Below, piece after piece: positions 16,766-51,893 of a stretch of DNA of 64,000 nucleotides. Origin of the DNA: Blastocatellia bacterium (lineage in GTDB: Bacteria > Acidobacteriota > Blastocatellia > UBA7656); NCBI GenBank assembly GCA_035455165.1, contig DATIFP010000214.1, forward strand, positions 2,571 to 66,570, in the 5' to 3' direction. A model generated the notes under the pieces. That model was not told the DNA's origin. It made no database searches and saw only the letters and a program-made list of their open reading frames with translations. Within the stretch, counting starts at the first letter, position 1; every line of letters starts with the position of its first letter. Both the position numbers and the translations under genes were made by a program.

Positions 16766-18508
16766 ATGACACCGCTCGGTAAGCTCATAAGCTACTTCGC
16801 ACCATACAGACGCATACTGATCTTCGGCGTCGTGTGTGTCTTCATGACGAATCTTGTGCGGCTCACGGCTCCGCTGGTCCTGCGCAATGCCGTCGACGAA
16901 CTCGCCGCGGGGGTTACGCACGCGCGGCTGCTCGAATACGCCGGACTGCTGATTCTGATAGCGCTCGGGCAAGGCGTCTTTCTTTTTACACAGCGTCGCC
17001 TGCTGATCAACATGTCGCGCGACATCGAATACGACTTGCGCAACGATTTCTACGAGCACTTGCAAAAGCTTCCGTTCGAGTTCTATCAGACGCATCGTAC
17101 GGGAGATTTGATGGCGCGCGCGACCAACGATCTTTCGGCGGTGAGAATGATCGTCGGACCCGCGCTGATGTACTCAATGAACACGGTGTTCGCGATGGCG
17201 TTGATCGTGCCGCTGATGGCGGCTATCAGCTGGCGGCTGACATTGCTCGCGTTTCTCTCAATGCCGCTGGTTGCTACCGCGACGAACTACTTTTCAAAGC
17301 GCATACACGATCGGTTCGAAAAAGTGCAGGAGTATTTCGGCACCGTTTCGAACCGGGCACAGGAATCACTGGCCGGCGTTCGCGTGATCCGAGCCTACAC
17401 ACAGGAGCGAGCGGAGATCGAGAGCTTTAAACACGTCAACCGCGAGTTCGTCGACCGCAACCTGAAGCTCATCCGTTTGTCAGGAGTCTTCCATCCGATA
17501 TTGCAGTTCTTCATCGGGCTCGGGTTCATCGCCGTGTTGTGGTACGGCGGGAGCCTGGTCATCGGCGGCGCAATCAGCATCGGGCAGTTCGTTCAGTTCA
17601 CGCTGTATCTTGGCTACCTGGTCTGGCCGATGATCGCGCTCGGCTGGGTGATCAATATCTTCCAACGCGGGATGGCTTCGATGGGCCGCATGCACAAGAT
17701 AATGTCAATCGAACCCGCGATTCGTGATACCGATCAAGCTTTGGCCATCGCTGGAATCGACGGCGAGATCGAGTTTCGCGACCTGACTTTCACGTATGGC
17801 GGAGCAAGCGAGCCAGCCTTGAGAGACATCAACCTGCACATCGAGCCCGGCCAGACGGTCGCGTTTGTCGGAGCAGTCGGGTCCGGAAAATCGACACTGA
17901 TGAATCTGATCGCTCGGTTGCTGGACGCCCCACCAGGACAAGTCTTGATCGACGGCCGTCCGATTCGCGAGATCCCGCTCGGCGTGTTGCGCAGCTCGAT
18001 CGGCTACGTCCCGCAGGAGACGTTTTTGTTCAGCGAAACCGTCGCCGAGAACATCGCATTCGGGGTGGAGAGAGCGACCGGCGAAGAAATCGAGCGCGCG
18101 GCTACCGAAGCCGGAATCGCGGAAGATATCCTCGAGTTCCCGCGGGGGTTCGAGACATTGGTTGGGGAACGCGGAATCACGCTTTCAGGCGGACAGAAGC
18201 AGCGAACGGCAATCGCTCGGGCGTTGATACGCCGGCCTCGAATTCTAATCCTGGACGACGCGTTGTCCTCGGTCGATACCTACACCGAAGAGAGAATCCT
18301 CGGCCACCTCCGGCGAATAATGATCGGCCGGACGAGTTTGATCGTCTCTCATCGGGTTTCGACGGTGAAGGACGCCGATTTGATCGTCGTTCTTGAAGAC
18401 GGCCGCATTGCCGAGCGCGGCACACATGATTCGTTGATCGATCGTGGCGGGCTTTATGCAGAGTTATATGAGAAGCAATTGTTGGAAGAAGAGCTGGCCG
18501 CGAGCTAG
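16766..18508 (+). CDS. ABC exporter, fused permease/ATP-binding subunit (MsbA/Mdl-like half transporter)
   Basis: Six predicted TM helices followed by Walker A (GAVGSGKST), ABC signature (LSGGQKQR) and Walker B (ILILDD). Confidence 0.9.
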   Translation: MTPLGKLISYFAPYRRILIFGVVCVFMTNLVRLTAPLVLRNAVDELAAGVTHARLLEYAGLLILIALGQGVFLFTQRRLLINMSRDIEYDLRNDFYEHLQKLPFEFYQTHRTGDLMARATNDLSAVRMIVGPALMYSMNTVFAMALIVPLMAAISWRLTLLAFLSMPLVATATNYFSKRIHDRFEKVQEYFGTVSNRAQESLAGVRVIRAYTQERAEIESFKHVNREFVDRNLKLIRLSGVFHPILQFFIGLGFIAVLWYGGSLVIGGAISIGQFVQFTLYLGYLVWPMIALGWVINIFQRGMASMGRMHKIMSIEPAIRDTDQALAIAGIDGEIEFRDLTFTYGGASEPALRDINLHIEPGQTVAFVGAVGSGKSTLMNLIARLLDAPPGQVLIDGRPIREIPLGVLRSSIGYVPQETFLFSETVAENIAFGVERATGEEIERAATEAGIAEDILEFPRGFETLVGERGITLSGGQKQRTAIARALIRRPRILILDDALSSVDTYTEERILGHLRRIMIGRTSLIVSHRVSTVKDADLIVVLEDGRIAERGTHDSLIDRGGLYAELYEKQLLEEELAAS

Positions 18509-24792: not shown

Positions 24793-25416
24793 TTACGCCT
24801 CGCTATAGTGGTCTCTCGGCAGTGCTATGCGGACAAGATAATAGCAGAACCGAGAACTCACGTGTTCCGCGTAAGGAGTCACCAATCTGCACCGGCGCTT
24901 TGTATCGAGGTCTAGTCGGTAATAGACCTCCTCAGTTGGAAGACTAAAATAGCGTTTGAAATCAATACCAAGCTCCGGGAGGCCCACATCGCACGCATCG
25001 TCTTGCGGTTGAACCTTTTCGAGGAACTGATACCGCTCATCCTTGTTAGCCCTGATGCGCTTCCAAATGTCCGATTTGATGCCCTCCCTTCCTCGAAGTT
25101 CTTCTGCCGTCACTACCTCACAAAAAAGAACTGAAGGGAGCAGCTTGTCAGAGGAAACACCAGCGTTGTTCCTGGCTCCAAAATCCTGAATCAGGTCGCA
25201 GTCCTGACTAACGATAATGGCATAGGGATGATTTACGGAATCGATGAATGCAGTTTCCTCAGTGAGACTATCCAGCTGCAGTTTGACCTGAACAATATCC
25301 GTCAGGATCTCACCTTGCCGGAGAGATTTCGCCCGATCAGATCGCTCGTAAATTCTTGTGTGTAGAGCTTGCGATACCGATAGTCGTAGTTCAGTCGATT
25401 GTTCTTCAGACGCCAA
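24793..25416 (-). CDS. Hypothetical protein (low-GC island gene 3)
   Basis: No internal Met. Begins with TTG at 25416, with GAGGAG 10 nt upstream overlapping the stop of the preceding gene. ~48-50% GC against a ~62% background. Confidence 0.5.
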   Translation of the reverse strand: MASEEQSTELRLSVSQALHTRIYERSDRAKSLRQGEILTDIVQVKLQLDSLTEETAFIDSVNHPYAIIVSQDCDLIQDFGARNNAGVSSDKLLPSVLFCEVVTAEELRGREGIKSDIWKRIRANKDERYQFLEKVQPQDDACDVGLPELGIDFKRYFSLPTEEVYYRLDLDTKRRCRLVTPYAEHVSSRFCYYLVRIALPRDHYSEA

Positions 25417-25423
25417 GACACTC

Positions 25424-25813
25424 TTACTCCTCAGTTGCCTGGAAGGCAGGCCTATCGTACTTATCTCCCAGCCTTACTCTCGTGCCTGCGGAGTGTAAGA
25501 ACTGAGCGGGACTAGTACTGTTTCGGCTGCTATAAAACCTACAGATTTCCGCGATGGATTCGCAAGCTTCAGGCAGGCCCTTATCAGAGACTAAATTGAC
25601 TAAGTAATGACAAATTATGCGATATCTCAGACTCTCGCGCGATTCTGCTTCGATTGAGGTCGCGGGAGCACTTACAGAAATGGTATGCCTAATATTTCCG
25701 CCCGACACTTCCTGCTGCCATCCCAAGACAAATGTAGGCTTCGCACCTCCTGTCTGAGAGCTTGCTTCGTATTGGAAGCTCGTTTCAAATTGGCAAGGGT
25801 TCCATTGCCTCAT
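25424..25813 (-). CDS. Hypothetical protein (low-GC island gene 2)
   Basis: Start taken at MRQWNP (ATG 25813, GGAG 9 nt upstream). Overlaps the gene-1 stop by ~29 nt in another frame. Confidence 0.45.
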   Translation of the reverse strand: MRQWNPCQFETSFQYEASSQTGGAKPTFVLGWQQEVSGGNIRHTISVSAPATSIEAESRESLRYRIICHYLVNLVSDKGLPEACESIAEICRFYSSRNSTSPAQFLHSAGTRVRLGDKYDRPAFQATEE

Positions 25814-26570
25814 TAAGTCGCTCCGTAATGCACCAACGGAAAAGGCGAGCAGATTGCTCGTTGAAGAAGTCGAGTATCTTGATGGCATCGTTTAGCTCCG
25901 TTCGTTGATCAGTGGAAAAATCGCTATCGATGAGGTAGCACACCTCTTTTTCTTGGTTGAAGGCTAGCCCATGGTTGATAAGAACCTGGCCGCGACCGTC
26001 CAACCGAATCGTTACCTGATTGGCACTATGAACAATGTCATGTGCTATCTCAGATGATAGTTCCCCGGCAATATGAGGCTTCAGCAAAGCAGACCAAGGC
26101 GCTTCGGATAGCCCCAAGTTCGATCGCTGAATAACATCTCGATATCGCAACCCTATTCTACTATAAAAGAGTGGTGAATATAACTGTACAAAAGATTCGA
26201 GGGCGTGAATTAGTTTCTCCTTAAATACCTCCCATCGCTCGTATTTCACCGTCGATAACGCTAGAGATTCTCTGTCCATGCTGACCTTCCATGACTGGTC
26301 GCCCGAGATAAACTCGTAAGATGCCTTCCCGCCACGGAGTGAAATTGGACCGCTCGAACCAACTAGGTTTGCGAGATCAGGTGCCAAGTTGAGCTTAACC
26401 TCGGAGGTCTGAGAATCACCAAAAATTGGATAGGTTTCTCTAAGCTTCTCCTGGTACTGCGCTGGAACCTCTGTATCAATGCGCAGGATTGCGGGGAATC
26501 TTAACTGGCAGATAACCTCAACCAAAGGATTCTTTCTGTATATTACTCGGGACGATTCGGGGAATGCCAT
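25785..26570 (-). CDS. Uncharacterised protein resembling the TIGR04255 conserved-hypothetical family (low-GC island gene 1)
   Basis: The N-terminal YRKNPLVEVICQLRFP closely matches my recollection of TIGR04255-family N-termini. ~260 aa. Start at MAFPESS (ATG 26570); the track ORF extends to a TTG at 26654. Confidence 0.55.
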   Translation of the reverse strand: MAFPESSRVIYRKNPLVEVICQLRFPAILRIDTEVPAQYQEKLRETYPIFGDSQTSEVKLNLAPDLANLVGSSGPISLRGGKASYEFISGDQSWKVSMDRESLALSTVKYERWEVFKEKLIHALESFVQLYSPLFYSRIGLRYRDVIQRSNLGLSEAPWSALLKPHIAGELSSEIAHDIVHSANQVTIRLDGRGQVLINHGLAFNQEKEVCYLIDSDFSTDQRTELNDAIKILDFFNEQSARLFRWCITERLNEAMEPLPI

Positions 26571-26756
26571 CTCCTTAGCAATAACCTCCTCAAGACTAGC
26601 CAGAGAGTTCAGGCGACCGGCTGCGACTCTACAAAAAACATTATACTCCGTCAACCGCGCTTTAAGCTATTTTTGGCGGAATCAGAATTGAGCTGTCCGC
26701 AACCGTCGCAATCCCCGTTTGACGAGCCGAGCTTTGGGTCGCCCGTAGGCCTAAGT

Positions 26757-29121: not shown

Positions 29122-29154
29122 AGTTTCAGGACTCCGCAATCCGCAATCCTCAAT
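29058..29154. repeat. Heptamer (GGATTGC)x4 tandem repeat with an inverted partial copy, forming a long hairpin across the gmhB-like start region
   Basis: gcggattgcggattgcggattgcggattcg at 29058-29087 and ctccgcaatccgcaatcctcaatc at 29131-29154 are reverse-complementary. The predicted RBS (GGAG) and the start codons 29109/29121 lie between or inside the arms. Confidence 0.8.
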
Positions 29155-30335
29155 CAGTAGAGCGTCTCGGCGACCCCTAATAACGACGAGATGTTGTGTT
29201 GCACGAAGTCGATGCGAATCTTTGGCGCGTATGGCTGTTCATAGAACCCGCCCGCCGCTCGAGCCGGATTCGGAACCGCCGGCCTGTTTTCCTGTGAGAG
29301 CTGTCTTGTGAGCTGAAACTTCGCCGAGGCTTTCAAAGCCGTTGCAATCTTCGACGCTCGCGCGTCTCCTGTTGCACGGGCGATTCTATATGCCGCCACC
29401 ATTCCTTCCGCTCTCGATGCGGCAGGCGTCACTCTTGGAGGACCGGGTCCGAATCCCCCCGCATTGCCTTCGGGGTCGTCGTCGGAATATTGATCGGCGA
29501 TCATCGCATCGGCGAGAGCGATGACGTGGTCCGCGTACCTTTTCTCCTTGCCAACGTTGTACAGCGCTTCGAGAGCCTGCATCAGCCACGCGTCTGGGGG
29601 AAGGGTCTGAATTTGGCGCTGAGACGCGATCAGATAATCGGCGCCTCGCCGCGCAGTCCTGAGCAGTCGCTGATCGCCGTTCAACCTGAACAGACGAACA
29701 AGACCGAGGATCGCCTCACCCGGGTAGTAAAGTGAAGCGGGACCGGGCGGGTCCTTAGCTCGAAGTCGATATCGCGTATGGAATGACCCATCCCTTCGTT
29801 GCAGCATCACGATGAGATCCGCCAGTCGCCGCGCGTTCGTCCGGCTTGATGACTTCGGATCGAGCTCGATGAGCTTCGCCAGAGCCGTGAGCGCCAACCC
29901 GTTCGCTCCGAGTTTCGCCTTACCGTCATAATCCAGCACGTAGAGAGCGCGTCTCCCCGGGACGCGTCTGAAGCGAGTCTCGAGCAACTTCACCGCGCGA
30001 CGCGCCGATTCCAGATACCGATTCTCTCGCGTTGCCGAGTAGAGGTCGAGGAGAGACAACGCAGTCCCGGCGTGCCTGACGATGTTGTAGGTTTGAGATT
30101 CGAAGCGGTCGTCGGCCGCATTGTAGTAGTAGTGGAAACTGCCGTCGCCGCGCTGTACTCGCAGCAGGTAGTCGCCGCCCGCTCGCGACGCGGCAATAAG
30201 TCGATCGCGATTCAGCTCGGCGGCGCGCGCGGGTTGCCTTTGCTTGAGTGAAGCTGACGTTAGGGCTCCTGGCCCGTGTGCCAGCGCTGTCGACAGGAGT
30301 AAGAGTGAAAACGCAGTGGATCTTGCGAGCGGCAT
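29154..30335 (-). CDS. Secreted hypothetical protein with (alpha/alpha)-toroid-like repeats
   Basis: Signal peptide MPLARSTAFSLLLLSTALAHG. Repeated (Q/R)RGDGSFHYYY / RRDGSFHTRY motifs recall prenyltransferase or terpene-cyclase-type repeats. Function unknown. Confidence 0.55.
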   Translation of the reverse strand: MPLARSTAFSLLLLSTALAHGPGALTSASLKQRQPARAAELNRDRLIAASRAGGDYLLRVQRGDGSFHYYYNAADDRFESQTYNIVRHAGTALSLLDLYSATRENRYLESARRAVKLLETRFRRVPGRRALYVLDYDGKAKLGANGLALTALAKLIELDPKSSSRTNARRLADLIVMLQRRDGSFHTRYRLRAKDPPGPASLYYPGEAILGLVRLFRLNGDQRLLRTARRGADYLIASQRQIQTLPPDAWLMQALEALYNVGKEKRYADHVIALADAMIADQYSDDDPEGNAGGFGPGPPRVTPAASRAEGMVAAYRIARATGDARASKIATALKASAKFQLTRQLSQENRPAVPNPARAAGGFYEQPYAPKIRIDFVQHNISSLLGVAETLY

Positions 30336-30508
30336 CTCCACCAAAGGTTTATCACAGCGCGCGAGTCGGAGTCATGATACATCCGTGTCGACTGCGCGTG
30401 TGTGAAGACCGAGGCTTTGCCGAGAGATCTCCGGCAGACGTACTGGGCCTACCGCGTCGCTGAAAGAGTCGTTGGCGGGTGTCGCAACCTGCTAACCACG
30501 GGCCGCCG

Positions 30509-33046
30509 CTAAAGCACTTCAATGCGGCTCGCATTGTACGAGCCATCCGGTTGCGCCGTGCCTTTGACCTCGACCTGCGCGCCGACTGCTGCTGCTCCTT
30601 TGTCCTGGCGGATCTCGGTAGAAGAGAAAACGTGAACAGTCACCCCGGCCACTTGCCAGTTGCCGACAAAACCGCTGGGAGGCATGGCCTGGACTGTGCC
30701 CTTAAAACTTGTTTCGCTTCCTCCTCCTCCGCCACTACCACTCGACTTGACCTCAACGCGAGTGGCAATCGTGGACCCGTCCGGCTGGGTTGTGCCCCGG
30801 ACCTCGACCAGCGCGCCGACGACTGCCTGCCCCTTATCCTGTCGAAGCTCAGTAGAAGCCAACACGTGAACCGTATGGCCCGCAACTCGCCAATCACCGA
30901 TGAGTCCGCTGGCGGGCAGGCTCTCGATCAAACCTTCAAAAGTGGTTTCGCTGCCGCCGTCGCCAGACCCGCCGCCGCCGAAATCATCGCCTCCAGCCTG
31001 GAACGTGCCGCGAAGGACCACCTGACCGGCGGGAGTGCGAATTTCTATTACTTGAATCGCGGTTACCGGCCTGAGCGCCGGTGGCAGCACGCTGCCACTC
31101 GACCCGTCGCTGGTGAACTCGACTCTCAGATAGCCTCCCTGAGCGAGGAACGAACCAAGGCTCACCGTGTCGGCAAAAATTTCATAAGCGGATCCAGATG
31201 CGAGTCCATCTGCTTCCACTCGCAGCTTGTCTCGCTCGGACTCTATCTCGGCTCGCGCCCTTCCGCTTGCCTGCCCAATCACACCGGTCGGGTTGAGCGT
31301 TGCCTCTTTTTCGACCGACTGCCCTCCTCCCTGTCCCGGGGCGGGTGTGGGCAAAAACGTATTCGAGAGTACGACTCGATCTTGTGCATCGCGCACCTCG
31401 ACTCTCTTTATGTTGGTTACAGGATTGAGAGCGGCAGGCAATGCCGGGTGCTCACTCGACGCCACGTTCGAGAATTCGATCTCGAATGCTCCGTAGTTAC
31501 TCGACCTTGCGCGATCGCGATTGGGGTCGGTCGAACTCGTGCCGTCGACGATCACGTTTCCGTCAACGACTAACTTGTAAGCAGCACGGGGCTGAAGCTG
31601 TTCGGCTTCGACTTCGAACTTCTGCTCGGTGCCAGTGACCGAGACCTCAGCCTTGCCGTGCGCCGTCGGCTCGACGCCGGTCGGGAGCAAGGCGATCTCA
31701 CTGCGATTGCTCGTGCCCGAGTCGAGACTCTGAAGCGCGCGAAGTGGATCGATACGGCCCTTGCCGAGCCTTCCCGCAAATCCAAGGTTTTTGTCGTCAA
31801 TGCCGGTCGCGGTTCTCTCAATCACGTCTCTCACGTCGCTGCGCGGATTGTTTTCGAGAATGAGCGCCGCCTCTGCGGTGGCGAGCGGGGCGGCAAACGA
31901 GGTTCCGCTCCAGCTCGCATAATCCGGAGTGTTATTAAGCTCGGGGTAGAGGCTGAACAGATTCACGCCCAGCGCGCTGACCGAGACGTTGCTCCCGAAG
32001 TTGGAGAAACTCGCCTTGCGGTTGCTGGAATCAATGGCGGCTACGCCGATTACTTCGGTAATCCAGTTTGCGGGGAACTGCGGCGCGAGGTCGTTGCCTT
32101 TGTCCTCGTTACCAACGGCCGCGACCAGGGACACGCCGCGCTGACGCGCGTAGGCAACGGCGTCGTGCAGAACAAGCGAATCTTCCGTTGTGCCAAAGCT
32201 AAGATTGATCACGCTCGCTCCGTGATCCACCGCGTACTTGATTCCCTGTGCGACGGAGAATGCATCGCTGACGCCCTCGGGCGAGAACGCGCGAATCGGC
32301 ATGATCTTTGCGCTCGGAGCAATCAGGGCGATCAATCCGGCTATAAAAGTCCCGTGCCCGGCGACGCTTGCTTGAGGGTCGCCGCGCTGTTCCATCGTAT
32401 CCTGGTTGCTGTCGAGGAAGTTCCATCCGAATACGTCATCAACCAGGCCGTCGTTGTCGTTGTCGATGTTGTCGCCCGGAATCTCGCCGGGATCCGTCCA
32501 GACGTGATCCCGGATGTCCGGGTGATTGCGATCGATCCCGGTGTCGATCACGGCAACGATTACCCCCGCGCCTCGCGCTCTCAGTTGAATCGCGGAAAGA
32601 TCGCCGACAAGTTGTTGCGACAGGTAATTCGCTTTGGCCTGACCGGTCGTCGGGTGATCTCCGGGAAAACCGATTACCGCGCGCCCGAAGACGTTGATCG
32701 GCGTCGTGATCACCGGGTTTAGCGTCGCGCTCAGGACATCCTGGTCTTTGCTGAGCTTCTTGCGAAACTTGTTCTCTTTCTTTCGCTTCGGGGTTTGCAG
32801 GCGGTAGACATTCGTGCCGTAAATGCGCTGGATCGTAATGGTGCCAAACCGCTCGTTGATTGCGTCGATCGACGCGCCGGGTTTGACTTCAACCAGCACC
32901 TCGCCGCGTCGAAAATCATCCACGCCTTGCGCCCGGGACTGCGCAGCAAACAGCGCGGTCGCAAGGAACAGGATCAACGCGAAAGAAATGGCTTTGAACG
33001 ATCTGAACAACATGGCGTCCCTCTTATGAGTCTGTTGCTTCTTCAT
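30509..33046 (-). CDS. Secreted S8 family subtilisin-like serine protease with C-terminal tandem repeat domains
   Basis: Signal peptide. Catalytic Asp (VIVAVIDTGID), His (HGTFIAGLIA) and Ser (GTSFAAPLATA) motifs. The C-terminus has two ~90-aa tandem repeats (..VAGHTVHVLASTELRQDKG.. / ..VAGVTVHVFSSTEIRQDKG..). Its ATG overlaps the upstream gene's TGA (GTATGAAG). Confidence 0.9.
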   Translation of the reverse strand: MKKQQTHKRDAMLFRSFKAISFALILFLATALFAAQSRAQGVDDFRRGEVLVEVKPGASIDAINERFGTITIQRIYGTNVYRLQTPKRKKENKFRKKLSKDQDVLSATLNPVITTPINVFGRAVIGFPGDHPTTGQAKANYLSQQLVGDLSAIQLRARGAGVIVAVIDTGIDRNHPDIRDHVWTDPGEIPGDNIDNDNDGLVDDVFGWNFLDSNQDTMEQRGDPQASVAGHGTFIAGLIALIAPSAKIMPIRAFSPEGVSDAFSVAQGIKYAVDHGASVINLSFGTTEDSLVLHDAVAYARQRGVSLVAAVGNEDKGNDLAPQFPANWITEVIGVAAIDSSNRKASFSNFGSNVSVSALGVNLFSLYPELNNTPDYASWSGTSFAAPLATAEAALILENNPRSDVRDVIERTATGIDDKNLGFAGRLGKGRIDPLRALQSLDSGTSNRSEIALLPTGVEPTAHGKAEVSVTGTEQKFEVEAEQLQPRAAYKLVVDGNVIVDGTSSTDPNRDRARSSNYGAFEIEFSNVASSEHPALPAALNPVTNIKRVEVRDAQDRVVLSNTFLPTPAPGQGGGQSVEKEATLNPTGVIGQASGRARAEIESERDKLRVEADGLASGSAYEIFADTVSLGSFLAQGGYLRVEFTSDGSSGSVLPPALRPVTAIQVIEIRTPAGQVVLRGTFQAGGDDFGGGGSGDGGSETTFEGLIESLPASGLIGDWRVAGHTVHVLASTELRQDKGQAVVGALVEVRGTTQPDGSTIATRVEVKSSGSGGGGGSETSFKGTVQAMPPSGFVGNWQVAGVTVHVFSSTEIRQDKGAAAVGAQVEVKGTAQPDGSYNASRIEVL

Positions 33047-35895
33047 ACTGGGTTCCCCATGAGCACAAACGGCGCCCAGTAATATGGATGGCCGTAGGCC
33101 TCCTTGATGACAAGCTGGGCGCTGCGCAACGCACTACTCTTGCTGGCGCCGGCTCGAATCTGCGAGTACATTTCGCGCATGAACTCGGCTGTCGACCGAT
33201 CGCTAACCGCCCAAAGGCTTGCTACCACCGACGGCGCGCCGGCAAACAAGAAACCGCGCAGCAGTCCGTGCAGCTCGTCGCCCGGAAAAACCTTATTCAC
33301 GCCTGTGTGACATGCAGACAGCGTCACGAGCTCCGCGTTCAGCTTGAGATCCAGCAAGCTGTAAAAATGCAGATTCGCGTCTGCCAGCTTCAAGAATGAA
33401 AACATAGGATTGTCGCGGCGAAAGTAACCGTGTGACGCAAGGTGGAGGAATCGCGCGCGCGGCGCAGCTTCAAACAAGTTTTCAAGCGTCGCTTCCTCAC
33501 TTGTCAATCTCACCGAGTCAGGAAACAAGACTCCCAGCTCATCAATCTCGTCGTCGATGTTCGGCGTGCCCGGCTCCGCCAGACCGAGAGCCACGAGGGT
33601 GTCGCTCGGCGAACCATCGGACGTCCCGGCCCTCGTCCGGCACAGCTTAAGGACGGTCGCGCTGGGCGCGTACGATATTTCGAAACGGTCGATCAGATAC
33701 CCGCTGCCGTCGTGCAGCGCGTGAAAGGGCACGTAATGCAACGCGCCGTGTGGAATGACAATCAAGCGATCGCAGGTGAGCGCCGCTTCGATGGGCGCGG
33801 CGATCAAGTGATAGAGTTGGCCGAGGATTTCGTTGGCCGCCCGGCGCAGCTGGCCGAAATAGGCTTCGACGTATTCAGATCCGTAATTGAATTTTTCGAT
33901 CTGAAACCTCAGCGTCGCCAGCAGCCGCTCAACCTCATCCTTTCTGGCAATGCGTCGCGCGACCTGGACTTCATCGCGTGAAGCGATGAAAGCCGAGACG
34001 TGGCCGGCAGTCGTAAAATACTCGACGACCGTTTCACCGGGCTCGAGCACAGCCTGCAGGTCTTCGAGAGAGGCGCCTCTCATCCGATGTATATCGGCGA
34101 ATGCCGGCGCTTCGGTCTCAAGCCGGTTGAAGAGTTGAGCGATCTGGCGTTCACATCGCGCGACTGCGTGCCGATAATGGCCGGCCCTATCGGCGCTGCG
34201 CTGATCGCCTTTGTCTTCGGCTAGCCCGGCTTGCGCCCCGTACCAGTTCAAATCCTCGATCAACTTCGAGATCCGTTCGCGCGTCCCGGGCGCCACCCTG
34301 CTCTCGGCACGGGTTTCGGAGGTGCCCCGGACGTAGCGCGCCAGCAGATCCGCGAGCGCTCGCGACTTAGACGATTCGACCAATCCGAAGGCTTCTTCGA
34401 CGGAGTCGTCGGTGCCGCTGTCGAGGCAGGCAGCGATTGCGTCTTCGTAGGCGTGAATCTTGTCGTGGAGAAAACTCGCTTTGAATTCGTCCGCCGCGAT
34501 CCCTCCTCGCATCTTTTCGATTATCTCGACGGCCCGTCGAAAGCTATCGAGGGCGAGCGGGCTGTCTTTGCGTTCTCGAGCGACGCGCCCGATGAGGTGG
34601 TGACACTGATAAGCCACGGAGGGAGCCGACAGATCTCCTAGCGATTTGAGCGCAGCCTTCGCCATCCGCGACGCGCGTCTCAGATCGCCCGCGCCGTAAG
34701 CGGCGCGCGAGCCGAGCGACCGTGCGTAGGCGGCTCGCGTTGAGAGCTTCTGCCGCGCGAACACGCGCAGAGATGAGGCTGCATAGCGCGCCGCTCCCGT
34801 ATTGTCGTTGCGGCGGAGAGCCAGCTCGGCGAGATAGGACTCGATCAATGCGGCAAGTGTCGTGTTGCCGGTTTCGGCGAAGATCTGTCTGGCTTCAAGG
34901 AAGTCTCGCTCCGCTCGCTCGTGTTCCTCCTGACCCATCGCGGCGAGCGCGTGGACAACGGCCGCCTGCGCGGACTCGTAAGGCAGGTTCAGTTCGGCGA
35001 ATGCTTCGCGCGCTGCCGCGGCGTTTTCCGAGGCGTCGTCAAACGCATTCAAAGCGAGCAGTATCTCGGCGATCTCGTGTCTGCACCAGGCCACAAGCTG
35101 AGTGCTTCCAAGCCCCTCGAGATCTTCGCGAGCTCGATAGTGCGTGGTAAGAGCGGCGTTGTAGTTGCCGCGGAGGAATTGCAGATAGCCGATGTGGAAC
35201 CGCGTCTGCGCGGCCCACAGCTTCTGTCCCGATCGCTCCATGGTTCTCGCCGCGCTTTCCAGCAATCGAAGCGCGTCGCTGTGCCTGTCCACCTCCATCA
35301 AAGCGTGTGATAGGTTGGTGTCCACAACTGCGCGCATCGTGTCGTCCCCGCAGGATTCGAGGATCTTTCGCGCGCGCTCGTAATGCTCGATCGCTTTCCG
35401 GTACCGATCCAGACGGTAGTAGAGGATTCCGACGTTTGTTTCCAGTTGCGCGAGATAAACCGGCGAGCGGACGGACAGCACCCGGCGGGAGGCTCGCGCC
35501 GTTGCGAGCGCTTCGTCGTAGCGGCCCATTTGCGTGAGAGCAAACACGCGATGCATCTGTATGACCGCGGTGTCCGTCGTGAGCCTGGCTGCGCGCGTGG
35601 CCCGAATCGCGCTCTGGTAGAGCGAGTCGGCCTCGTCATATCGGCCGATATGATGCAGCACGCGGGCTCGGCTCGCTTCGGCGAATCCCTTCGAGAGACC
35701 ATCGCCGAGCGCCGCGGCCACCTGCTCAACGCGCTCGGACAGGCGCCTCGCAGCGTTGAGGTCGGAACCAATCAGACGATCCACTTCCGCTTTGAGCGCG
35801 GAGACTGTCTCCCAACTCGACGAAATCGCTTCCTCGCGCAGAAAAACATCCGCGCTTTCGGCATTGATCAGTTTTTCTCCGAGTTCTCTACTCAC
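33043..35895 (-). CDS. TPR repeat plus CHAT (caspase-like peptidase) domain protein
   Basis: 950 aa. The N-terminal ~600 aa are TPR-like helical repeats. C-terminal CHAT signatures carry a His (FLHLASHGYF) and a Cys (LVTLSACHTG) dyad. No signal peptide. GTG start. Confidence 0.85.
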   Translation of the reverse strand: MSRELGEKLINAESADVFLREEAISSSWETVSALKAEVDRLIGSDLNAARRLSERVEQVAAALGDGLSKGFAEASRARVLHHIGRYDEADSLYQSAIRATRAARLTTDTAVIQMHRVFALTQMGRYDEALATARASRRVLSVRSPVYLAQLETNVGILYYRLDRYRKAIEHYERARKILESCGDDTMRAVVDTNLSHALMEVDRHSDALRLLESAARTMERSGQKLWAAQTRFHIGYLQFLRGNYNAALTTHYRAREDLEGLGSTQLVAWCRHEIAEILLALNAFDDASENAAAAREAFAELNLPYESAQAAVVHALAAMGQEEHERAERDFLEARQIFAETGNTTLAALIESYLAELALRRNDNTGAARYAASSLRVFARQKLSTRAAYARSLGSRAAYGAGDLRRASRMAKAALKSLGDLSAPSVAYQCHHLIGRVARERKDSPLALDSFRRAVEIIEKMRGGIAADEFKASFLHDKIHAYEDAIAACLDSGTDDSVEEAFGLVESSKSRALADLLARYVRGTSETRAESRVAPGTRERISKLIEDLNWYGAQAGLAEDKGDQRSADRAGHYRHAVARCERQIAQLFNRLETEAPAFADIHRMRGASLEDLQAVLEPGETVVEYFTTAGHVSAFIASRDEVQVARRIARKDEVERLLATLRFQIEKFNYGSEYVEAYFGQLRRAANEILGQLYHLIAAPIEAALTCDRLIVIPHGALHYVPFHALHDGSGYLIDRFEISYAPSATVLKLCRTRAGTSDGSPSDTLVALGLAEPGTPNIDDEIDELGVLFPDSVRLTSEEATLENLFEAAPRARFLHLASHGYFRRDNPMFSFLKLADANLHFYSLLDLKLNAELVTLSACHTGVNKVFPGDELHGLLRGFLFAGAPSVVASLWAVSDRSTAEFMREMYSQIRAGASKSSALRSAQLVIKEAYGHPYYWAPFVLMGNPV

Positions 35896-35995
35896 AACTC
35901 ATCCATCAATCTGCCGGTGTCGCCCGTCTGCTCCACTTTCCAGCGTGTGCTTGTTTCCAAGCTGTGGGCATCAGTCGATGCGGGATTATTTTCGG

Positions 35996-36619
35996 TTAGG
36001 ATTCGATTAGAGGAAGATCCGGAACGGTGATGCTTCCCTCGGACAACTCGACTCGCAGATCGTAGACGCCGGGCTCCATACCGCTGATTTTGAACTCACC
36101 CATCGCATCGGTCACCGTCGAGAAAACAACCGTTCCCTCGCGCGCAAGGTTCAGCGTCAGGCCGGAGACTGATTCAAAGGTGGTTTCGCCTTCCTTGAGC
36201 ACTTGTCCGATCAAGTCGGCGCGCGCCTGCTCGGATTGCGCGATCTGTAAGTCCACGCTGTAATCGCCCGCACTGTAGAGCAATTGCCGGTTGGCCGTCT
36301 CAGTCGAGCGGACCCCGGCCAGAGCCGGGCGCGCGAAACTATCGAATACCAGCGCGGCGATCGCCTGCCCGATGCGTTTGCCCAGCCTGGGGCGCTGTCG
36401 CGCGGTGTCAAAGACTCTAACCGCGCGTTTGAGCACCCAGGCCGGCGGCGCAATGGAGTCATCACTGGCGGCAACGCCTCGCACCCTCTGATACCAATCG
36501 CGGTTTTCCGCACAACCCTCACATCCCCTGGCTAGATGGTTCGCGATTTGTGCGCCGTCTGACTCCTGGAGCCGGTTATCGAGGAAGTCGATCAGTCGCT
36601 CAAAGCTTGGGCAATTCAT
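35996..36619 (-). CDS. Anti-sigma factor (zf-HC2 N-terminal domain, C-terminal carboxypeptidase-regulatory-like beta domain)
   Basis: MNCPSFERLIDFLDNRLQESDGAQIANHLARGCEGCAE is a typical ChrR/RsrA-type zf-HC2 motif. Start at ATG 36619 (GGAG 9 nt upstream). Confidence 0.75.
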   Translation of the reverse strand: MNCPSFERLIDFLDNRLQESDGAQIANHLARGCEGCAENRDWYQRVRGVAASDDSIAPPAWVLKRAVRVFDTARQRPRLGKRIGQAIAALVFDSFARPALAGVRSTETANRQLLYSAGDYSVDLQIAQSEQARADLIGQVLKEGETTFESVSGLTLNLAREGTVVFSTVTDAMGEFKISGMEPGVYDLRVELSEGSITVPDLPLIES

Positions 36620-36694
36620 CGTTTTTTGCTCCTGGTTCATCTCCGCCATTCCTGAAGAGGGTCGCACGGCCCTAAAAATACATTCGTTTTCCTG

Positions 36695-37303
36695 TCAAAT
36701 CTTGCCCTCCAGGAGCTTTCGCAGTTTTTCCAGACAACGGGCTCGTGTGGGGCCAACCGAGGGCACCGGCATCCTTATTCGGCGCGCGATGTCAACATAG
36801 CTTAACTCGTCTTTTTCGTAAAAGAGCAGGGTTATGAGTTGCCGGCACCGCTCTGGTAGCGAATCCACCCCTTGACGCAGGTATTGTTGCTGCTCGAGGG
36901 CTTCGCGCTGCTCATCGGCGAGCGGTCCGATCGCCGGGATTTCTTTCACAAACTCGACGCTCTCATCGTCGGTGGAGCCGGCCGGGACACCCCCTTTTCG
37001 ATTCCGCGCTGATAAGCGCCAGCATTCCCGAGACGTCGTAGTGATCAACCACGAGCTTATCCTCTCGGTATCGCGTATTGTTGCGAGCTTTTGGTATAGC
37101 TTAAGACACACCGATTGAAAGATGTCCGAGGCGTCGTCTTGTGAGAGGCCGGTCTTCATCGGTATCGAGTAAATCAACCGTTGATATCGGGTGATCAGCG
37201 ATTCCCAAGCGGATTGGTCACCGGATAGACAAGCAGCCACTAACTCGCGATCATCGCGCACCGCAGTCGTAGCCGGCGCTTCAGCTAGAGTTTGGCTCTT
37301 CAT
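36695..37303 (-). CDS. RNA polymerase sigma-70 factor, ECF subfamily
   Basis: Region 2 (ESLITRYQRLIYSIPMK..DIFQSVCLKLYQKL) and region 4 (ELSYVDIARRIRMPVPSVGPTRARCLEKLRKLL) signatures. Its stop lies 28 nt upstream of the anti-sigma gene. Confidence 0.8.
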   Translation of the reverse strand: MKSQTLAEAPATTAVRDDRELVAACLSGDQSAWESLITRYQRLIYSIPMKTGLSQDDASDIFQSVCLKLYQKLATIRDTERISSWLITTTSRECWRLSARNRKGGVPAGSTDDESVEFVKEIPAIGPLADEQREALEQQQYLRQGVDSLPERCRQLITLLFYEKDELSYVDIARRIRMPVPSVGPTRARCLEKLRKLLEGKI

Positions 37304-37408
37304 TCCGTGTTTCCAGCCGACTTGATTTCCAGCAGGAGTGAGGTGGCATCCCAACAAGCGGGCACTGAGATTTTATCAAACCGGGTGACGTCAAGGAAGA
37401 AGATGCGA

Positions 37409-37450
37409 GAAAAAAGTAAAATGCCGCCAGAGCCTCGCGTCCGGCGGCAT
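37409..37450 (-). terminator. Rho-independent terminator (GC-rich hairpin plus U-tract on the minus strand)
   Basis: Minus-strand reading: GCCGCCGGACGCGAGGCTCTGGCGGC followed by ATTTTACTTTTTTCT. ~130 nt downstream of the stop of the upstream ECF sigma gene (37577). Confidence 0.6.
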
Positions 37451-37530
37451 TTCTTAATCTCGTTTTGATTTTGAGATGTCCGACAACTTCCGTTTGTCGC
37501 TTGTCAATGAGTGCGCGCGCTTTGAGATCA

Positions 37531-37576: not shown

Positions 37577-38149
37577 CTACGCTGCCTTGGCGCGCTGAAG
37601 CAGCAACCGGCGAAGCTTCAATCTCGCCTTATGCAATTGCGACTTTGAGGTACCCGCGCTGCACCCGAGCAGCCTGGCTATCTCCTCGTGCTCGTAACCC
37701 TCGACGTCGTGTAATACAAATACTGTGCGGTAGCCGGGAGGAAGTTGGCCTATCGCGCTTTCGAGTCCGATGCGATCGATGATCGGCATGGATTCGGGGT
37801 TGATCGTCTCAGGGTCTATGGAGTCGGGCATTTCCCCATCGTCCGTCGTCAATTCAGAGCGGACCGACCGTTTGCGAAAGTGCATAAGCACCTGGTTCAC
37901 GGTAAGCCGATGAAGCCAGGTCGTGAAGGCCGCTTCGCCCCGAAACGAACCGATCTTGCGATGAAGTTGAATAAATACTTCTTGAGTCAGGTCTTCAGCT
38001 TCGGCTATGTTGCCGGTCATCCTGAGGCAAATCGAATACACTCTGCGATAGTGTTTGCGGTAAAGATCCTCAAAACCGCTCATCGCGTCGCCGGCCAATG
38101 CCGAGTTCAGCCCTGCGTCTGATTGAATCGAAATCGCGTTGGTTGCCAT
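37577..38149 (-). CDS. RNA polymerase sigma-70 factor, ECF subfamily (RpoE-like)
   Basis: Region 2 ([41 protein letters not shown]) and region 4 ([35 protein letters not shown]). Start at MATNAIS (ATG 38149, GGAGGAACGACA upstream). The track ORF extends to 38332. Confidence 0.8.
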
Positions 38150-38390
38150 TGTCGTTCCTCCGAGTGTCCGCTCACGTGCTTCTCGATTGTGAGTGCTTCT
38201 GACAAGGGCGACTGGCGTGCCACCGGCCAGCGTAACGCCATCTTGACGGTAACTCCTCCCATTACAGAGACTTACCAGTGATGCGTTTTCACGCTGGCGG
38301 ACATGGCGGTTCTGCTTATCGTATGAACTCACACGAAATCGTGTGGGGTAGGTTTGGGGGAGGCTCGCCAGAGTGCAGGGCGGGCGGCAA

Positions 38391-46591: not shown

Positions 46592-49500
46592 TCACGGTGG
46601 CGCGGGATCTACAACGATCGTCAACGAGCCGGATGTGGCACTCACGTGAGGATCTTGAGAGTCGGTCAAGCGCACCGTAAAAGTAAAAGTCCCGTTTTGT
46701 CCTTGCGCCGGCGCACCCGAGATCACGCCGGTATTCGCGTTCAATGATAAGCCGGTCGGCAACGCGCCGGTTGCGATCGTCCACGTGTACGGGGTCGCCC
46801 CACCTTTGGCCTGAAGCGAATGTGAGTAGGACACTCCCACGGTTCCTCTGGCAAGCGTGCCTTCGGTGAGGATGACCAGCGGGCCGGGTACGATAGTGAT
46901 CTGCAATGGCTGAGAGGTTACGCTGGCCCCCGTGGCATCGGTCAGCATCACGACGAAATTGAAAGTGCCTACTTGCGCCGGTGTCCCCGAAATCACGCCG
47001 CTGGTGCTGCCAAGTGCGAGCCCGGACGTCGCGGGCAACCCCGCCACCACGCTCCATGTTCGAGGAGCAACACCGCCTGCGAAGAACAATTGTTGAGAAT
47101 AGTCGACGCCAGTGCTGCCCTGAGGAAGCTCACCATGGCTGATGATTTGGAACGGATCAACGTCGGAGCTGATGGCCAGAGACAAGCTGGCCAGCGCAGT
47201 GACGCCGGCGGAATCTGTTGCTCTCACCGTAAGCGGGAATGTTCCGAACACCGACGGCGTCCCGGAGATCCTACCCGACGCGTTCATCGAGACTCCGGTC
47301 GGCAGCGAGCCTGAACTCAACTGCCACGTGTAGGGCGGCCGCCCATTGGCCGCCGCGAGATCCGTCTCGTAGAACTCGCCCTTCTTACCTTTCGGTAACG
47401 CTGTAGTGACAATCGTGAAGATATTATTCTGGATGGTGACTGTCCGCGACCCAATAACCGTTGCGTTTCCGGCGGCGTCCAGCACTCTAACTGCCAGCGT
47501 GTGGTCCCCAAGAGTGAGCTTGGTAGTATCGATCTGGAAGCTGAATCCTGAATGTGCGGCATTCGGGAAGGTCCCCCACACCACTCCGATGTCGGGCCGG
47601 CTCAGCGCGTAAACAGCCTCGCTCACCTTCTGTCCATCCATCAGCACCTCGATCTGCACGACCCCGACGTTGTCGAGCGCCCAACCGCTCCCGCTTGCCA
47701 GATTGGTCAGTGTGGTGCGAGCGCCCGGCGTTTCGAGCGAGCCGAACGGTGCGAGCCTGTCAGACGGCTTAATGATGATCGCAAGAGTCCTGGTAACAGT
47801 CTGCGCGGCAAAGTCGGTTACGCGCACCACGAAGACGCTGGTTCCTGGCGAAGCCGGCGTCCCGGAGATCAAACCATCCGCGGAGAGATTCATTCCTGGC
47901 CCTAGGCTCCCGCTCGCTATGCTCCAGGTATATGGCGGCAAACCACCCGCCGCTTGAAGCGCTTGCGAATAAGGACGCTCTGCCGTCGTCTCGGGCAACA
48001 AGATCGTCTGAATCACAAGTGGCGGCGGGGGCGGAACGACCGTGAGGAACAGGGGCTTGGTGCTGGAGCTTCCGACTGCGTCCCGGACCCTGGCCAAGAA
48101 CGAACTCGAGCCCAGGGTGGTTGGTCTGCCCGAAACCTCACCGTCGCTGCTTACTGAAAGCCCGTCAGGCAAAGCACCGGCGTCGATGTTCCAATTGTAT
48201 GGCCCAACTCCGCCTGATGCTTCCAACCGGCCGCGGTATGGAAGACCTTGCGGCGCCTGTGGAAGAAAATCGGTCCTTATCGACAGCGGCGGCGGAGGCG
48301 GGCCAACCTCCAATGTCAACGGCTTGGTTGCCAATCTTCCGACGGCGTCTTCAACGCGCACGGTGAAATTAAAGGTCGCTTGAACCGTCGGCGTCCCCGA
48401 CAGTATTCCATCCGACGTGAGCGATAACCCATCAGGCAGCGTGCCGAATTTCTTCTTCTTCTTCTTTTTAGCCCAGCTATAAGGCGCGGTGCCCGCGGTC
48501 GCCTTAAACTCGTATCGATAAGGTACCCCGATCGCCGCCACCGGAAGCCCGGAGGGGCTCAGTATCGTCAGGCCGGGCGGCGGATCTACATCGATCGACA
48601 GCGGCGCGGTCAGCGACTGCCCGCCTTGATCGGTTGCGCGTATTTCGAATTGCGCTTCGCCCGATACAGTCGGTGTTCCTGAGATCGTGCCTGCCTCTGA
48701 AAGCTGTAACCCCTGCGGGAGGTTTCCCGATTTTAGCTCCCATCGATATGGACCGTTCCCTCCGGAAGCCTTCAGAGCTTGAGAGTACTCCTCGCCGACC
48801 ACGCCGTCGGGCAGCGAAGCAGTGTCGATAGAAAGAGCGAGGGCGGAAGGATTGATCGTTATCGCGAGAGTGGCTGTGACGCTAGCATTGACGGAATCGG
48901 TGAGCCTGAGCACAAAGCTCGCAGTGCCCGGCCGCTCCGGCGTGCCCGAGATGATCCCGCTTTGATTAAGGGTCAGCCCGTTGGGGAGATTCCCCGATTG
49001 GATGGACCAGGTGTAGGGAGTCTGGCCTCCCGACGCTCCGACATTCTGGCTGTACGTAGCGCCGACCGATCCTCGCGGCAACTGACTGCTTGTAATCGAC
49101 AGTGGTGCGGCAGATCTGACTATCAGGGTCAACGCCTTTGAAGCGACGCCTCCCCTGCTGTCGGATACCCTGACGACGAAGTTGAAAGTTCCCGCAGTCG
49201 AGGGAATGCCCGAGACGGATCCGGTTTGCGAAAGCGACAGGCCCGGAGGCAGCGACCCACTCTCTATCAACCAGGTGAAGTCCGGGCTGCCTCCCAGGGC
49301 AGCAAGCGTCCGGCTGTATGCAACGCCGACTGTCGCGTCGGGCAGATCCGCGGTCCCTATCGACAGCGCAGACGAAGTGGATGGCGTGATAACCGTCGCT
49401 TCGTTTGAGTACGAAGAAGCACCCGTGCCGTTGAACGCACGGACCCTATAGGCATAGGCGGTGTTGGCCAATACGCTGGAGTCCGCGTAGGTGTTGGTGT

Positions 49501-50980: not shown

Positions 50981-51893
50981 CAATCAGGAACCTCGATGCG
51001 TAAAGCCACGGCCGGTACTGCCCGCTCTATGACCGTGGGGGGCCAAGGTCAAACCAGGAACCTCTGCTTCGAATCATTATTCAAAGAGTTTCAGGTTAGC
51101 CGTAGTCCTTTATGGTGAAGAGAGATCGCCACGGGGTAGCTCGGCCGGGATGCTCAAATGAGTGCCTTCTGGTCATCGCGGGGGTCTCGATTCCTCAACG
51201 TTCACCGAGTCACACTCTTGTGCGTCGGTCAGCCCGGCCGTTGCCGTGCTTCGGAGCTCCAAACTTCAAATGATAAGGCGGCGAGTATACCTTAAGCCCT
51301 AAGTCGTCGCAAGCGGGAAAGATACCTACACTTAGAGCCTTCGTCGCTTTGGCTCATGGTATTCAAAACGGGAGACCTTCGGTTTTCGGCGATCAACATA
51401 AATAATCAACATAAAGGAATCGGACGACCGGCGTTGAATCCGGCGACGCGCTTGCCCATGGGCCTTATTAATCGTGCGATTCCACCTTGAAGCGCGTATC
51501 CTAAACCACCGCTTCTGCATCGCTTGTGCGATCCTTGACACACCTAAACCGAAAGTGTAGAGTGTGGCCTTGCCACCGGACAATATGAAGCGAGCAACAT
51601 ACAAGCGCGCGTACTCAGAGTCCTCACACGATCTCTCTGAGCAAGAGAGTCCCTCAGCTGCCTCGACAACGTCAAACTCACGCGATAATCGGCGGTGAGC
51701 GCGGCGGTGTTCTAAGGAAGCTTCGCAGCGCGACCGCGCAAAAAGATTCTGCGTCGTTGTTGGTTCTCGTCCTTCATACCTGAGGCTTGAACGTTGCCGC
51801 CCCGATGAAGCATACTATCGGGCAAACAGTTCAATCGGTCCGGTAACACCATTCCGATGAATTCGAATACGGGAGTTGGAGGAGTAGGAATTA

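Follow-up and report, generated by a model that had tools for sequence, protein, structure and literature searches.

Four co-directional genes lie on the minus strand at positions 30509-37357 of a 64,000-nucleotide stretch of DNA from a Blastocatellia bacterium (Acidobacteriota; GenBank assembly GCA_035455165.1, contig DATIFP010000214.1, positions 2,571 to 66,570), here called the window. A first-pass annotation of the window had placed them at these coordinates and read them as a sigma factor of the extracytoplasmic function (ECF) type, an anti-sigma factor, a TPR-CHAT protease and a secreted S8 subtilase. All four genes are present as described, and the CHAT protein is 100% identical to an NCBI protein from a metagenome-assembled genome (MAG) of class Blastocatellia. 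The genes, referred to below as the module, and the elements at their upstream border are as follows.

37418-37453, minus strand: intrinsic terminator of the upstream ECF sigma gene (37577-38332), a 14-bp stem with 7 G-C pairs followed by a T-run
37370-37398, minus strand: promoter-like motif TTCCTTGACGTCACCCGGTTTGATAAAAT, located 67-95 nt upstream of the sigma ATG; its consensus in the family is cTtCCAa-N12-TcTGnTAnnAT
36695-37303, minus strand: ECF sigma factor, 202 aa
35996-36619, minus strand: putative anti-sigma factor, 207 aa
33043-35895, minus strand: TPR-CHAT protein, 950 aa
30509-33046, minus strand: S8 subtilase, 845 aa

The conservation of the module was assessed by a locus scan limited to one genome per species, with loci mapped by tblastn and open reading frame (ORF) mapping. 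It yielded 80 loci, almost all of them assigned by label to Acidobacteriota or a class within it, and the four genes stand together in about 70 of them, in at least four acidobacterial classes. The gene order in Blastocatellia is sigma, anti-sigma, CHAT, S8. In Terriglobia, Vicinamibacterales and other lineages, in which the CHAT proteins are 30-35% identical, the order is sigma, CHAT, anti-sigma, S8, and in six non-Blastocatellia loci the sigma and CHAT genes overlap by 4 nt. Each of several Blastocatellia genomes carries 2-3 paralogous modules (loci L012/L025/L036; L017/L029/L047; L027/L032/L040; L033/L051/L054), which differ in S8 length (approximately 670-890 aa) and in the -35 variants of their promoters. 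The copy in the window belongs to an orthologous class, class A, flanked in the order GAF, second ECF sigma factor, module, GH127-like gene, HAD, recN; this core synteny is held across more than 25 species-level genomes at 60-84% identity, and the other copies lack it. Within Blastocatellia, the pairwise identities of the anti-sigma factor, CHAT protein and S8 subtilase correlate with one another (r=0.68-0.76) and with those of the sigma factor at 0.37-0.43. Reciprocal searches that set out from three divergent lineages of the anti-sigma factor led back to the module in each case, once with a CHAT protein of 28% identity. The module is a real co-conserved unit, as the first-pass annotation had supposed, and has been duplicated as a unit.

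A contig from a lower-GC metagenome (L084, ENA ERZ1756177) carries the order sigma, anti-sigma, CHAT, with a CHAT protein 28% identical to that of the window encoded 12 nt past the anti-sigma gene; to judge from this locus, the distribution of the module may extend past the sampled lineages. Eighteen paralogous loci have a further gene inserted between sigma and anti-sigma, whose secreted product, 340-890 aa long, consists of tandem DUF5666/OB-like repeats (for example L018:6591-9080, L031:7616-9169 and L027:8274-9323); in the window, DUF5666 is fused to the S8 C-terminus. Seven loci (L020, L028, L038, L042, L044, L047 and L050) have a structured element of about 100 nt in the gap between the anti-sigma and CHAT genes (e.g. 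L044:6964-7085), with an 18-bp outer stem, compensatory changes at 13 of 30 pairs and a hairpin region bearing a near-invariant GGGGAGA(C/A)G. The element belongs to no Rfam family, is confined to the paralogue class with the DUF5666-repeat gene, and may represent a cis-regulatory RNA or else a REP-like element.

In the window, the sigma and anti-sigma genes are separated by 75 nt and the anti-sigma and CHAT genes by 100 nt, and the CHAT stop and S8 start overlap by 4 nt at GTATGAAG. With gaps of at most 100 nt, no extra ORF and no small substrate ORF lies between the four genes. The window contains no CRISPR repeat array, and the genes flanking the module are a GH127-like protein and an ECF sigma factor, with no gasdermin adjacent, which agrees with the earlier remark that CRISPR, gasdermin and other obvious substrate genes are missing. 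The terminator at 37418-37453 forms the upstream boundary of the transcription unit and has equivalent hairpins upstream in orthologous loci. Since this terminator is followed by the promoter-like motif, and no minus-strand terminator-like site occurs in any gap between the module genes, the four genes most likely form one transcription unit. Co-expression had been proposed earlier from the overlap of the subtilase ATG with the CHAT TGA. The overlap is there, but it occurs in only 3 loci (the usual gap is 50-150 nt), translational coupling is not conserved, and in many orthologues S8 is preceded by a promoter-like element of its own; a TGGTATAAT-like element is found upstream of S8 in 13 of the 56 Blastocatellia loci. 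An independent gene call on a public contig gave the same genes except for the S8 start, where M12 was picked; M1 matches the N-termini of orthologues.

The TGnTAnnAT element of the promoter-like motif was found at most 260 nt upstream of the sigma gene in 39 of the 56 Blastocatellia loci. Elsewhere in about 1 Mb of flanking sequence, the -10 pattern occurs at chance frequency, and the full motif including the -35 part was found only upstream of sigma. A position weight matrix built from 38 other loci gave one strong match in the 64-kb window, at 17.0 bits, against 10.7 for the runner-up and a minimum of 12.1 in the training set. At the level of sequence, the promoter-like motif is specific to the module.

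The sigma ORF spans 36695-37357, and the start supported by orthologues is the ATG at 37303. The protein passes the NCBIfam model TIGR02937 (sigma70-ECF) with 84 bits against a cut-off of 42.9; Pfam Sigma70_r2 is above its cut-off and Sigma70_r4 just below, and only the regions sigma2 and sigma4 occur, which places the protein in group IV (ECF). Among solved structures, a sigma-H factor entry (6in7), RpoE and SigW come closest to it, and it is present in the module in 69 loci. Five cysteines (C25, C66, C94, C153 and C190) are conserved across 68 homologues, which is unusual for an ECF sigma factor.

The start of the anti-sigma gene is supported by orthologues and by the independent gene call. 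Its product is built of an N-terminal three-helix domain, a linker and a C-terminal beta-sandwich; in the AlphaFold2 (AF2) model, helices occupy residues 6-51, a low-confidence stretch residues 53-109, and the beta-sandwich residues 111-204 at a predicted local distance difference test score (pLDDT) of 82-94. Three features of this protein were located in the window.

36512-36613, minus strand: putative zinc ligands C3, H28, C33 and C36
36305-36352, minus strand: linker motif L90-V-F-D93-S-x9-R104-S, a candidate docking or cleavage site for the CHAT protease
36008-36289, minus strand: CarboxypepD_reg-like beta-sandwich of the C-terminus

The zinc motif reads C3...H28-x4-C33-x2-C36, the spacing being x4 in the window and, in the family as a whole, x3 or x4; H28, C33 and C36 are invariant in 119 of 119 cluster representatives, and position 3 is Cys or His in 115 of the 119. 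Pfam zf-HC2 (PF13490) matches 26 of 41 orthologues at E<=0.01, and the N-terminus weakly resembles RsrA (23 bits vs an NCBIfam cut-off of 62.5). The beta-sandwich matches Pfam PF13620 at E=8e-6, below the cut-off, and 37 of 41 orthologues match; a fold search with the anti-sigma model returned only generic Ig-like matches (E>1e-3), by which the beta-sandwich was not identified. The protein appears to be a soluble, zinc-motif anti-sigma factor resembling the zinc anti-sigma (ZAS) proteins, and from its adjacency to the sigma gene in 60+ loci it presumably binds and inhibits that sigma factor. The beta domain had been taken for a periplasmic one. The zinc-motif protein does have a beta domain, but no transmembrane segment is predicted in it, and its sole hydrophobic stretch holds an invariant Asp and an invariant Arg and is strongly conserved in sequence; the whole protein, beta domain included, is therefore predicted to be soluble and cytoplasmic. 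Because it has no transmembrane helix, it would share a compartment with the CHAT protein.

Besides the zinc ligands, the best-conserved part of the anti-sigma factor is the linker motif, in shorthand LxFD[S/T]-x9-R. Across 68 acidobacterial sequences and the 119 cluster representatives, its family form is L90-x-[FVY]-D93-[STN]-x9-R104-[SGA]; among the cluster representatives, R104 is found in 119 of 119, D93 in 116 and L90 in 115. The motif falls within residues 88-109, which have an AF2 pLDDT below 50 and lie between the two folded domains. Three Thermoanaerobaculia loci (L061:4621-5037, L066:3884-4375 and L068 at approximately 17270-17686) have no sigma gene and no zinc domain, and encode instead an N-terminally truncated homologue of approximately 135 aa that starts just before the linker motif, keeps it with the same spacing, keeps the beta-sandwich and adjoins CHAT and S8. 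Since these sigma-less loci retain the motif together with CHAT and S8, the motif is likely to serve a partnership with the protease and not the binding of sigma. Locus L068 also has two S8 genes and an HD_5 protein upstream of CHAT. An apparent S8/anti-sigma fusion ORF in that locus was rejected: its translation is rich in Arg, Pro and Gly and belongs to the wrong frame, an artefact of the high GC of that genome, and the true gene is short and starts MQPTT. Proteins that match the anti-sigma profile over its full length are all about 200-250 aa long, and giant matches cover the CarboxypepD_reg repeats only.

The CHAT protein matches Pfam CHAT (PF12770) at E=2.8e-64 (217.8 bits vs a cut-off of 24), together with Pfam TPR_12 and other TPR families. 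Its two main parts, joined by a helical linker (AF2 mean pLDDT, 76), map as follows.

34507-35814, minus strand: TPR superhelix, residues 28-463, approximately 11 repeats (regular helix pairs in the AF2 model, pLDDT mostly 83-96; Pfam TPR)
33052-33828, minus strand: CHAT catalytic domain, residues 690-948, with H822 at 33430-33432 and C862 at 33310-33312

The catalytic dyad had been called intact in the first-pass annotation. H822 and C862 are invariant in 76 of 76 homologues and align with the HGE and GACET motifs of the Scalindua Csx29. Likewise in line with the annotation, which had compared the architecture with that of Csx29, the top matches of a Foldseek search with the CHAT model were separase, DdvA and Csx29 (E 4e-13 to 1e-10), so that on its modelled structure the protein belongs to the separase/Csx29/DdvA class of TPR-CHAT proteins. 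It is not a member of the Csx29 family proper (52 bits vs a cut-off of 300 for model NF041237). No signal peptide or transmembrane segment was found in the protein sequence. The TPR-CHAT protein is thus predicted to be a cytoplasmic, caspase-like cysteine protease of clan CD, and its TPR superhelix is presumed to be a sensor or partner-binding domain.

The subtilase matches Pfam Peptidase_S8 at 4.9e-45 (154.5 bits vs a cut-off of 21.8) and has a Fervidolysin_NPro-like prodomain and two DUF5666 domains (Pfam). Its parts are arranged as follows.

32930-33046, minus strand: signal peptide
31781-32572, minus strand: catalytic domain
30977-31657, minus strand: two repeats of approximately 115 aa
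30758-30949 and 30518-30703, minus strand: two DUF5666 domains

The triad D168/H231/S383 is invariant in 74 of 74 homologues, and the closest solved relatives are thermitase and subtilisin. A Sec-type signal peptide can be read from the sequence (a K/R-rich n-region, a 17-residue h-region and SRA|QG). The earlier description of a secreted S8 protease with C-terminal repeats holds, and the enzyme is predicted to be an exported, degradative-type subtilase; the CHAT protein and the anti-sigma factor are predicted not to be exported. A domain shared specifically within the module was considered for the anti-sigma beta-sandwich and the S8 C-terminal repeats and was rejected, no similarity being found.

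Given the dyad, the linker motif and the shared compartment, we propose that the TPR-CHAT protein cleaves the anti-sigma linker, or docks on it, and thereby releases the sigma factor, with the secreted subtilase as a co-regulated output. In the resting state, the ECF sigma factor would be held by the soluble, zinc-binding anti-sigma factor. A signal would be sensed by the cytoplasmic TPR-CHAT protein through its TPR superhelix, and the His822/Cys862 site would then cut, or at least dock on, the linker at LVFD93-S...GVR104-S, with R104 or D93 as the P1 residue. Such a cut would part the sigma-binding N-terminal domain from the beta-sandwich and free the sigma factor, which would increase transcription of the module, including that of the subtilase. 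Clan CD proteases are specific for the P1 residue, which is Arg for separase and the metacaspases and Asp for the caspases. The linker offers both, an invariant Arg with a small residue after it and an Asp (116 of 119) with Ser or Thr after it, and either D93 or R104 could accordingly be read from the sequence as P1. The inferred parts of this switch are the binding of sigma by the anti-sigma factor, the cleavage by CHAT, its site, the signal and the regulon. We put the proposal forward tentatively, with something close to an even chance of being correct.

The first-pass annotation had suggested a signal-triggered proteolytic cascade and had seen no obvious candidate for its target. A proteolytic signalling module is indeed encoded here, but a direct cascade from CHAT to S8 is unlikely because S8 has a signal peptide and CHAT has none, which puts the two proteases in different compartments; the anti-sigma factor itself, via its conserved linker motif, is the likely candidate for the CHAT target.

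Several points weigh against release of sigma by CHAT. The extended -10 element (TGnTAnnAT) is more typical of a housekeeping than of an ECF sigma factor, and the motif analysis does not discriminate between these two as the reader of the promoter, so that autoregulation is unproven. The window copy of the anti-sigma factor is below the Pfam zf-HC2 cut-off, with no match at E<=1, and a profile search of its family against PDB sequences found no solved anti-sigma domain. A Rosetta-stone search among the 150 best cluster representatives found no fusion of the anti-sigma family to CHAT. One paralogue, L025, has sigma, CHAT and S8 without an anti-sigma gene. The motif is assigned as a CHAT substrate site by inference, and could bind another conserved partner or be structural. 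Finally, the tight tie between a cytoplasmic switch and a secreted subtilase is not explained by the model alone.

An Opp/Dpp-type ABC importer (BPD_transp_1 permeases and an SBP_bac_5 substrate-binding protein, SBP) is encoded directly upstream of the module and in the same direction in 14 non-Blastocatellia loci by count, with L090 named besides (L056-L058, L060, L063, L065, L067, L069-L071, L076, L077, L080 and L090). In the majority of them, the SBP gene ends directly at the start codon of sigma or runs into it, even at approximately 50% SBP identity. Because a peptide importer lies upstream and the secreted subtilase is of the degradative type, a nutritional or peptide-sensing role is suggested. 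In such a circuit for protein utilisation, the subtilase would release peptides, the Opp/Dpp importer would take them up, the TPR domain would bind them, CHAT would cut the anti-sigma linker, and sigma would boost the module. If so, a caspase-like protease would act as an intracellular peptide receptor that controls transcription, in a feed-forward or quorum-like loop with 2-3 paralogous channels per genome. We regard this hypothesis as doubtful at present.

The alternative that survives best is a plain regulon, in which the sigma/anti-sigma pair answers a signal of its own, such as thiol oxidation of the zinc site as in RsrA, and drives two proteases meant for other substrates, CHAT leaving the anti-sigma factor untouched. 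The invariant zinc ligands H28, C33 and C36 and the weak RsrA match at the N-terminus fit this idea, as does the position of CHAT and S8 downstream in the transcription unit of the sigma/anti-sigma pair; moreover, as RsrA and SigR illustrate, soluble ZAS proteins let go of their sigma factors without the help of a protease. However, most non-Blastocatellia loci place CHAT between sigma and anti-sigma, overlapping the sigma stop in six, and because of this position CHAT looks like a regulator made in step with sigma and not like a target gene. A plain regulon also leaves unexplained why, in loci devoid of sigma and the zinc domain, the linker motif and beta-sandwich are kept alongside CHAT and S8, and why each paralogue retains a private CHAT. 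We consider it possible but rather unlikely.

Those sigma-less Thermoanaerobaculia loci can also be taken to mean that the core function belongs to a triad of CHAT, beta-sandwich protein and S8 that is independent of transcription, for example a cytoplasmic control of subtilase production or export, to which sigma and the zinc domain were added later. The truncated motif-plus-beta-sandwich protein, which stands beside CHAT and S8 in those loci, and the identities of anti-sigma, CHAT and S8, which correlate better with one another than with those of sigma, speak for this. Yet only three sigma-less loci were seen, all in high-GC draft MAGs of one class, and sigma is present in nearly all other loci; the beta-sandwich has no sequence similarity to the S8 domains, and no mechanism links a cytoplasmic protease to a Sec-exported enzyme. 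This explanation strikes us as quite improbable.

An anti-phage or abortive-infection sensor, in which TPR-CHAT would detect a phage protein and cleave the anti-sigma factor so that sigma induces defence genes, has been proposed for DdvA-DdvS and CASP-sigma, and the first-pass annotation had also pointed to gasdermins and abortive infection. All characterised CHAT/sigma pairings do come from defence loci (PMC10028731, PMC11506125, bioRxiv 10.1101/2023.06.23.546230), and several paralogues per genome could reflect diversification. PADLOC 2.0, however, matched no defence system and gave no match for sigma, anti-sigma or CHAT; the one match, which counts on the side of defence, was S8, as a generic 'subtilase'. 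Neither a CRISPR array nor any other defence gene lies close by, and the neighbours of the window copy are housekeeping genes (comEC, recN, kdsB, pyrG and a PBP4-type peptidase), with the class A synteny through recN, kdsB and pyrG held in more than 25 species-level genomes. Among 72,556 plasmids, none carries the anti-sigma family, and two generic plasmid CHAT proteins from other phyla (Azospirillum and Nostoc) have neither sigma nor S8 neighbours. In addition, the linked output is a secreted degradative subtilase, and the neighbour in other classes is a peptide importer. A defence role is thus very doubtful, and the gasdermin framing was not borne out. Chance adjacency of four unrelated genes is hardly conceivable: a promoter-like element often precedes S8 separately, and most loci lack the stop/start overlap, but the set is kept through gene-order change and paralogy down to 28-35% identity, and the comparative data contradict it.

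Some further features of the window were recorded around the module. The GH127-like gene (29154-30344, minus strand) encodes a 396-aa protein with a signal-peptide-like N-terminus and an (alpha/alpha)6 match; it begins 165 nt past S8 and is kept downstream only in the orthologous class A loci. Because no terminator is predicted after S8 and the gene is conserved in class A loci, it may be co-transcribed with the module. The second ECF sigma factor (37577-38332, minus strand), directly upstream of the module, is the most conserved gene of the neighbourhood (78-94% identity across Blastocatellia orthologues); it has an N-terminal ORF extension of approximately 60 aa, no adjacent anti-sigma gene and a strong terminator of its own. 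Between comEC and recN, a stretch of lower GC (0.54) at 24793-26654 (minus strand) encodes a protein of the TIGR04255 family (25785-26654) and contains two ORFs without a family match (24793-25416 and 25424-25888). At 46592-50983 (minus strand), a 1463-aa protein with nine He_PIG Ig-like repeats and fn3 and Big domains is encoded, which is probably of the surface or adhesin type. A 62-nt unit is repeated 1.9 times at 94% identity at 7504-7619. An Rfam scan of the window and three loci found two tRNAs and nothing else.

Switches in which a protease gates an ECF sigma factor are known in several forms, and the proposed release of sigma by TPR-CHAT can be compared with each. Some of its elements recall the RRNPP peptide-sensing systems (Rap, NprR and PlcR with Opp import), which are known from Firmicutes. 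A cytoplasmic TPR protein, a secreted protease and, in the non-Blastocatellia loci, an upstream Opp/Dpp importer are shared with them, and NprR is a weak TPR match; the likeness is one of logic only, as no pro-peptide gene was identified and the output domain is a CHAT protease and not a helix-turn-helix or phosphatase domain. Protease-activated gasdermin operons likewise combine the caspase-like and subtilisin-like classes, but the module has no gasdermin or small substrate ORF, and its S8 is Sec-exported. With the RsrA/ChrR-type ZAS proteins, the anti-sigma factor shares an N-terminal H-x3/4-C-x2-C with an upstream Cys/His, its predicted solubility and its place beside an ECF sigma gene; unlike them, it adds a linker motif and a beta-sandwich and is obligatorily linked to CHAT and S8, and the window copy is below the Pfam and NCBIfam cut-offs. 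The DegS/RseP-RseA-sigmaE pathway offers protease-gated release of an ECF sigma factor, as is proposed here, whereas the module has no membrane anti-sigma factor or site-2 protease, its candidate being a cytoplasmic clan CD cysteine protease.

Closer likenesses are found among the systems built on CHAT or sensor proteases. In Craspase, Csx29 (TPR-CHAT) cleaves Csx30 and so relieves the inhibition of the RpoE-like CASP-sigma (PMC10028731). As in Csx29-Csx30-CASP-sigma, the module has a cytoplasmic TPR-CHAT protein beside an ECF-type sigma factor and a sigma inhibitor, here predicted to be soluble, and, of the CHAT proteins with solved structures, it is Csx29 that matches best in sequence, with alignment of the dyad; it is among the leading fold matches as well (8eey_B). 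Unlike Craspase, the module has no Cas7-11/gRAMP, Csx30/Csx31 or CRISPR array and lies among housekeeping genes; its inhibitor, a zinc-motif protein with a beta-sandwich, is unrelated to Csx30; and it includes a secreted S8 and is distributed in the core genome throughout the phylum. In the DdvA-DdvS system of Myxococcus xanthus, a zinc anti-sigma domain is fused to TPR-CHAT and controls an ECF sigma factor (PMC11506125). DdvA is one transmembrane polypeptide with a periplasmic TPR-CHAT part, for which self-cleavage in trans followed by cleavage by RseP has been proposed, and DdvA-like proteins were reported only in Myxococcota and one Comamonas species (PMC11506125). DdvA and the module both have a zinc anti-sigma domain that works together, in the module by proposal, with a TPR-CHAT of the separase/craspase type bearing a His/Cys dyad, and DdvA (8rw5, 8rot) is among the leading fold matches; in the module, by contrast, the two are separate genes with a 100-nt gap, both predicted to be soluble and cytoplasmic, with no transmembrane helix in either product. 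According to the summary given in a preprint, CalpL of type III-B systems cleaves CalpT and releases CalpS (bioRxiv 10.1101/2023.06.23.546230), and the SAVED-CHAT/PCaspase/PCc-sigma pathway of that work is a precedent for the logic. As summarised there, CalpL-CalpT-CalpS resembles the module in having a cytoplasmic sensor-protease, a soluble anti-sigma factor and an ECF sigma factor, cleavage being a proposal only in the module, and differs in that CalpL is a Lon-SAVED protein activated by cyclic oligoadenylate, whereas the protease here is a TPR-CHAT protein with no CRISPR link.

In the literature searched, no description of the acidobacterial module was found; the text of the ECF re-classification makes no mention of CHAT, and its supplements were outside the search, so that an unnamed ECF group with such a context may exist. 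On this analysis, the module appears to be a free-standing variant of the protease-gated sigma/anti-sigma switch, a relative of Csx29-Csx30-CASP-sigma, CalpL-CalpT-CalpS and DdvA-DdvS that is undescribed in the searchable literature. It may help explain how secreted proteases are regulated in Acidobacteriota, which are hard to culture and feed on protein. If TPR-CHAT cuts the anti-sigma factor at D93/R104, ECF activation would have a fourth route in addition to those of regulated intramembrane proteolysis, partner switching and conformational or redox change. Control of a sigma factor by a CHAT protease has so far been reported only for CRISPR accessories (Csx29) and for a rare fused membrane protein (DdvA). 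The module is vertically inherited and spread through a major soil phylum with several copies per genome, and, were the cut to prove true, a housekeeping switch would seem to be the older form, from which the CRISPR-linked systems branched off.

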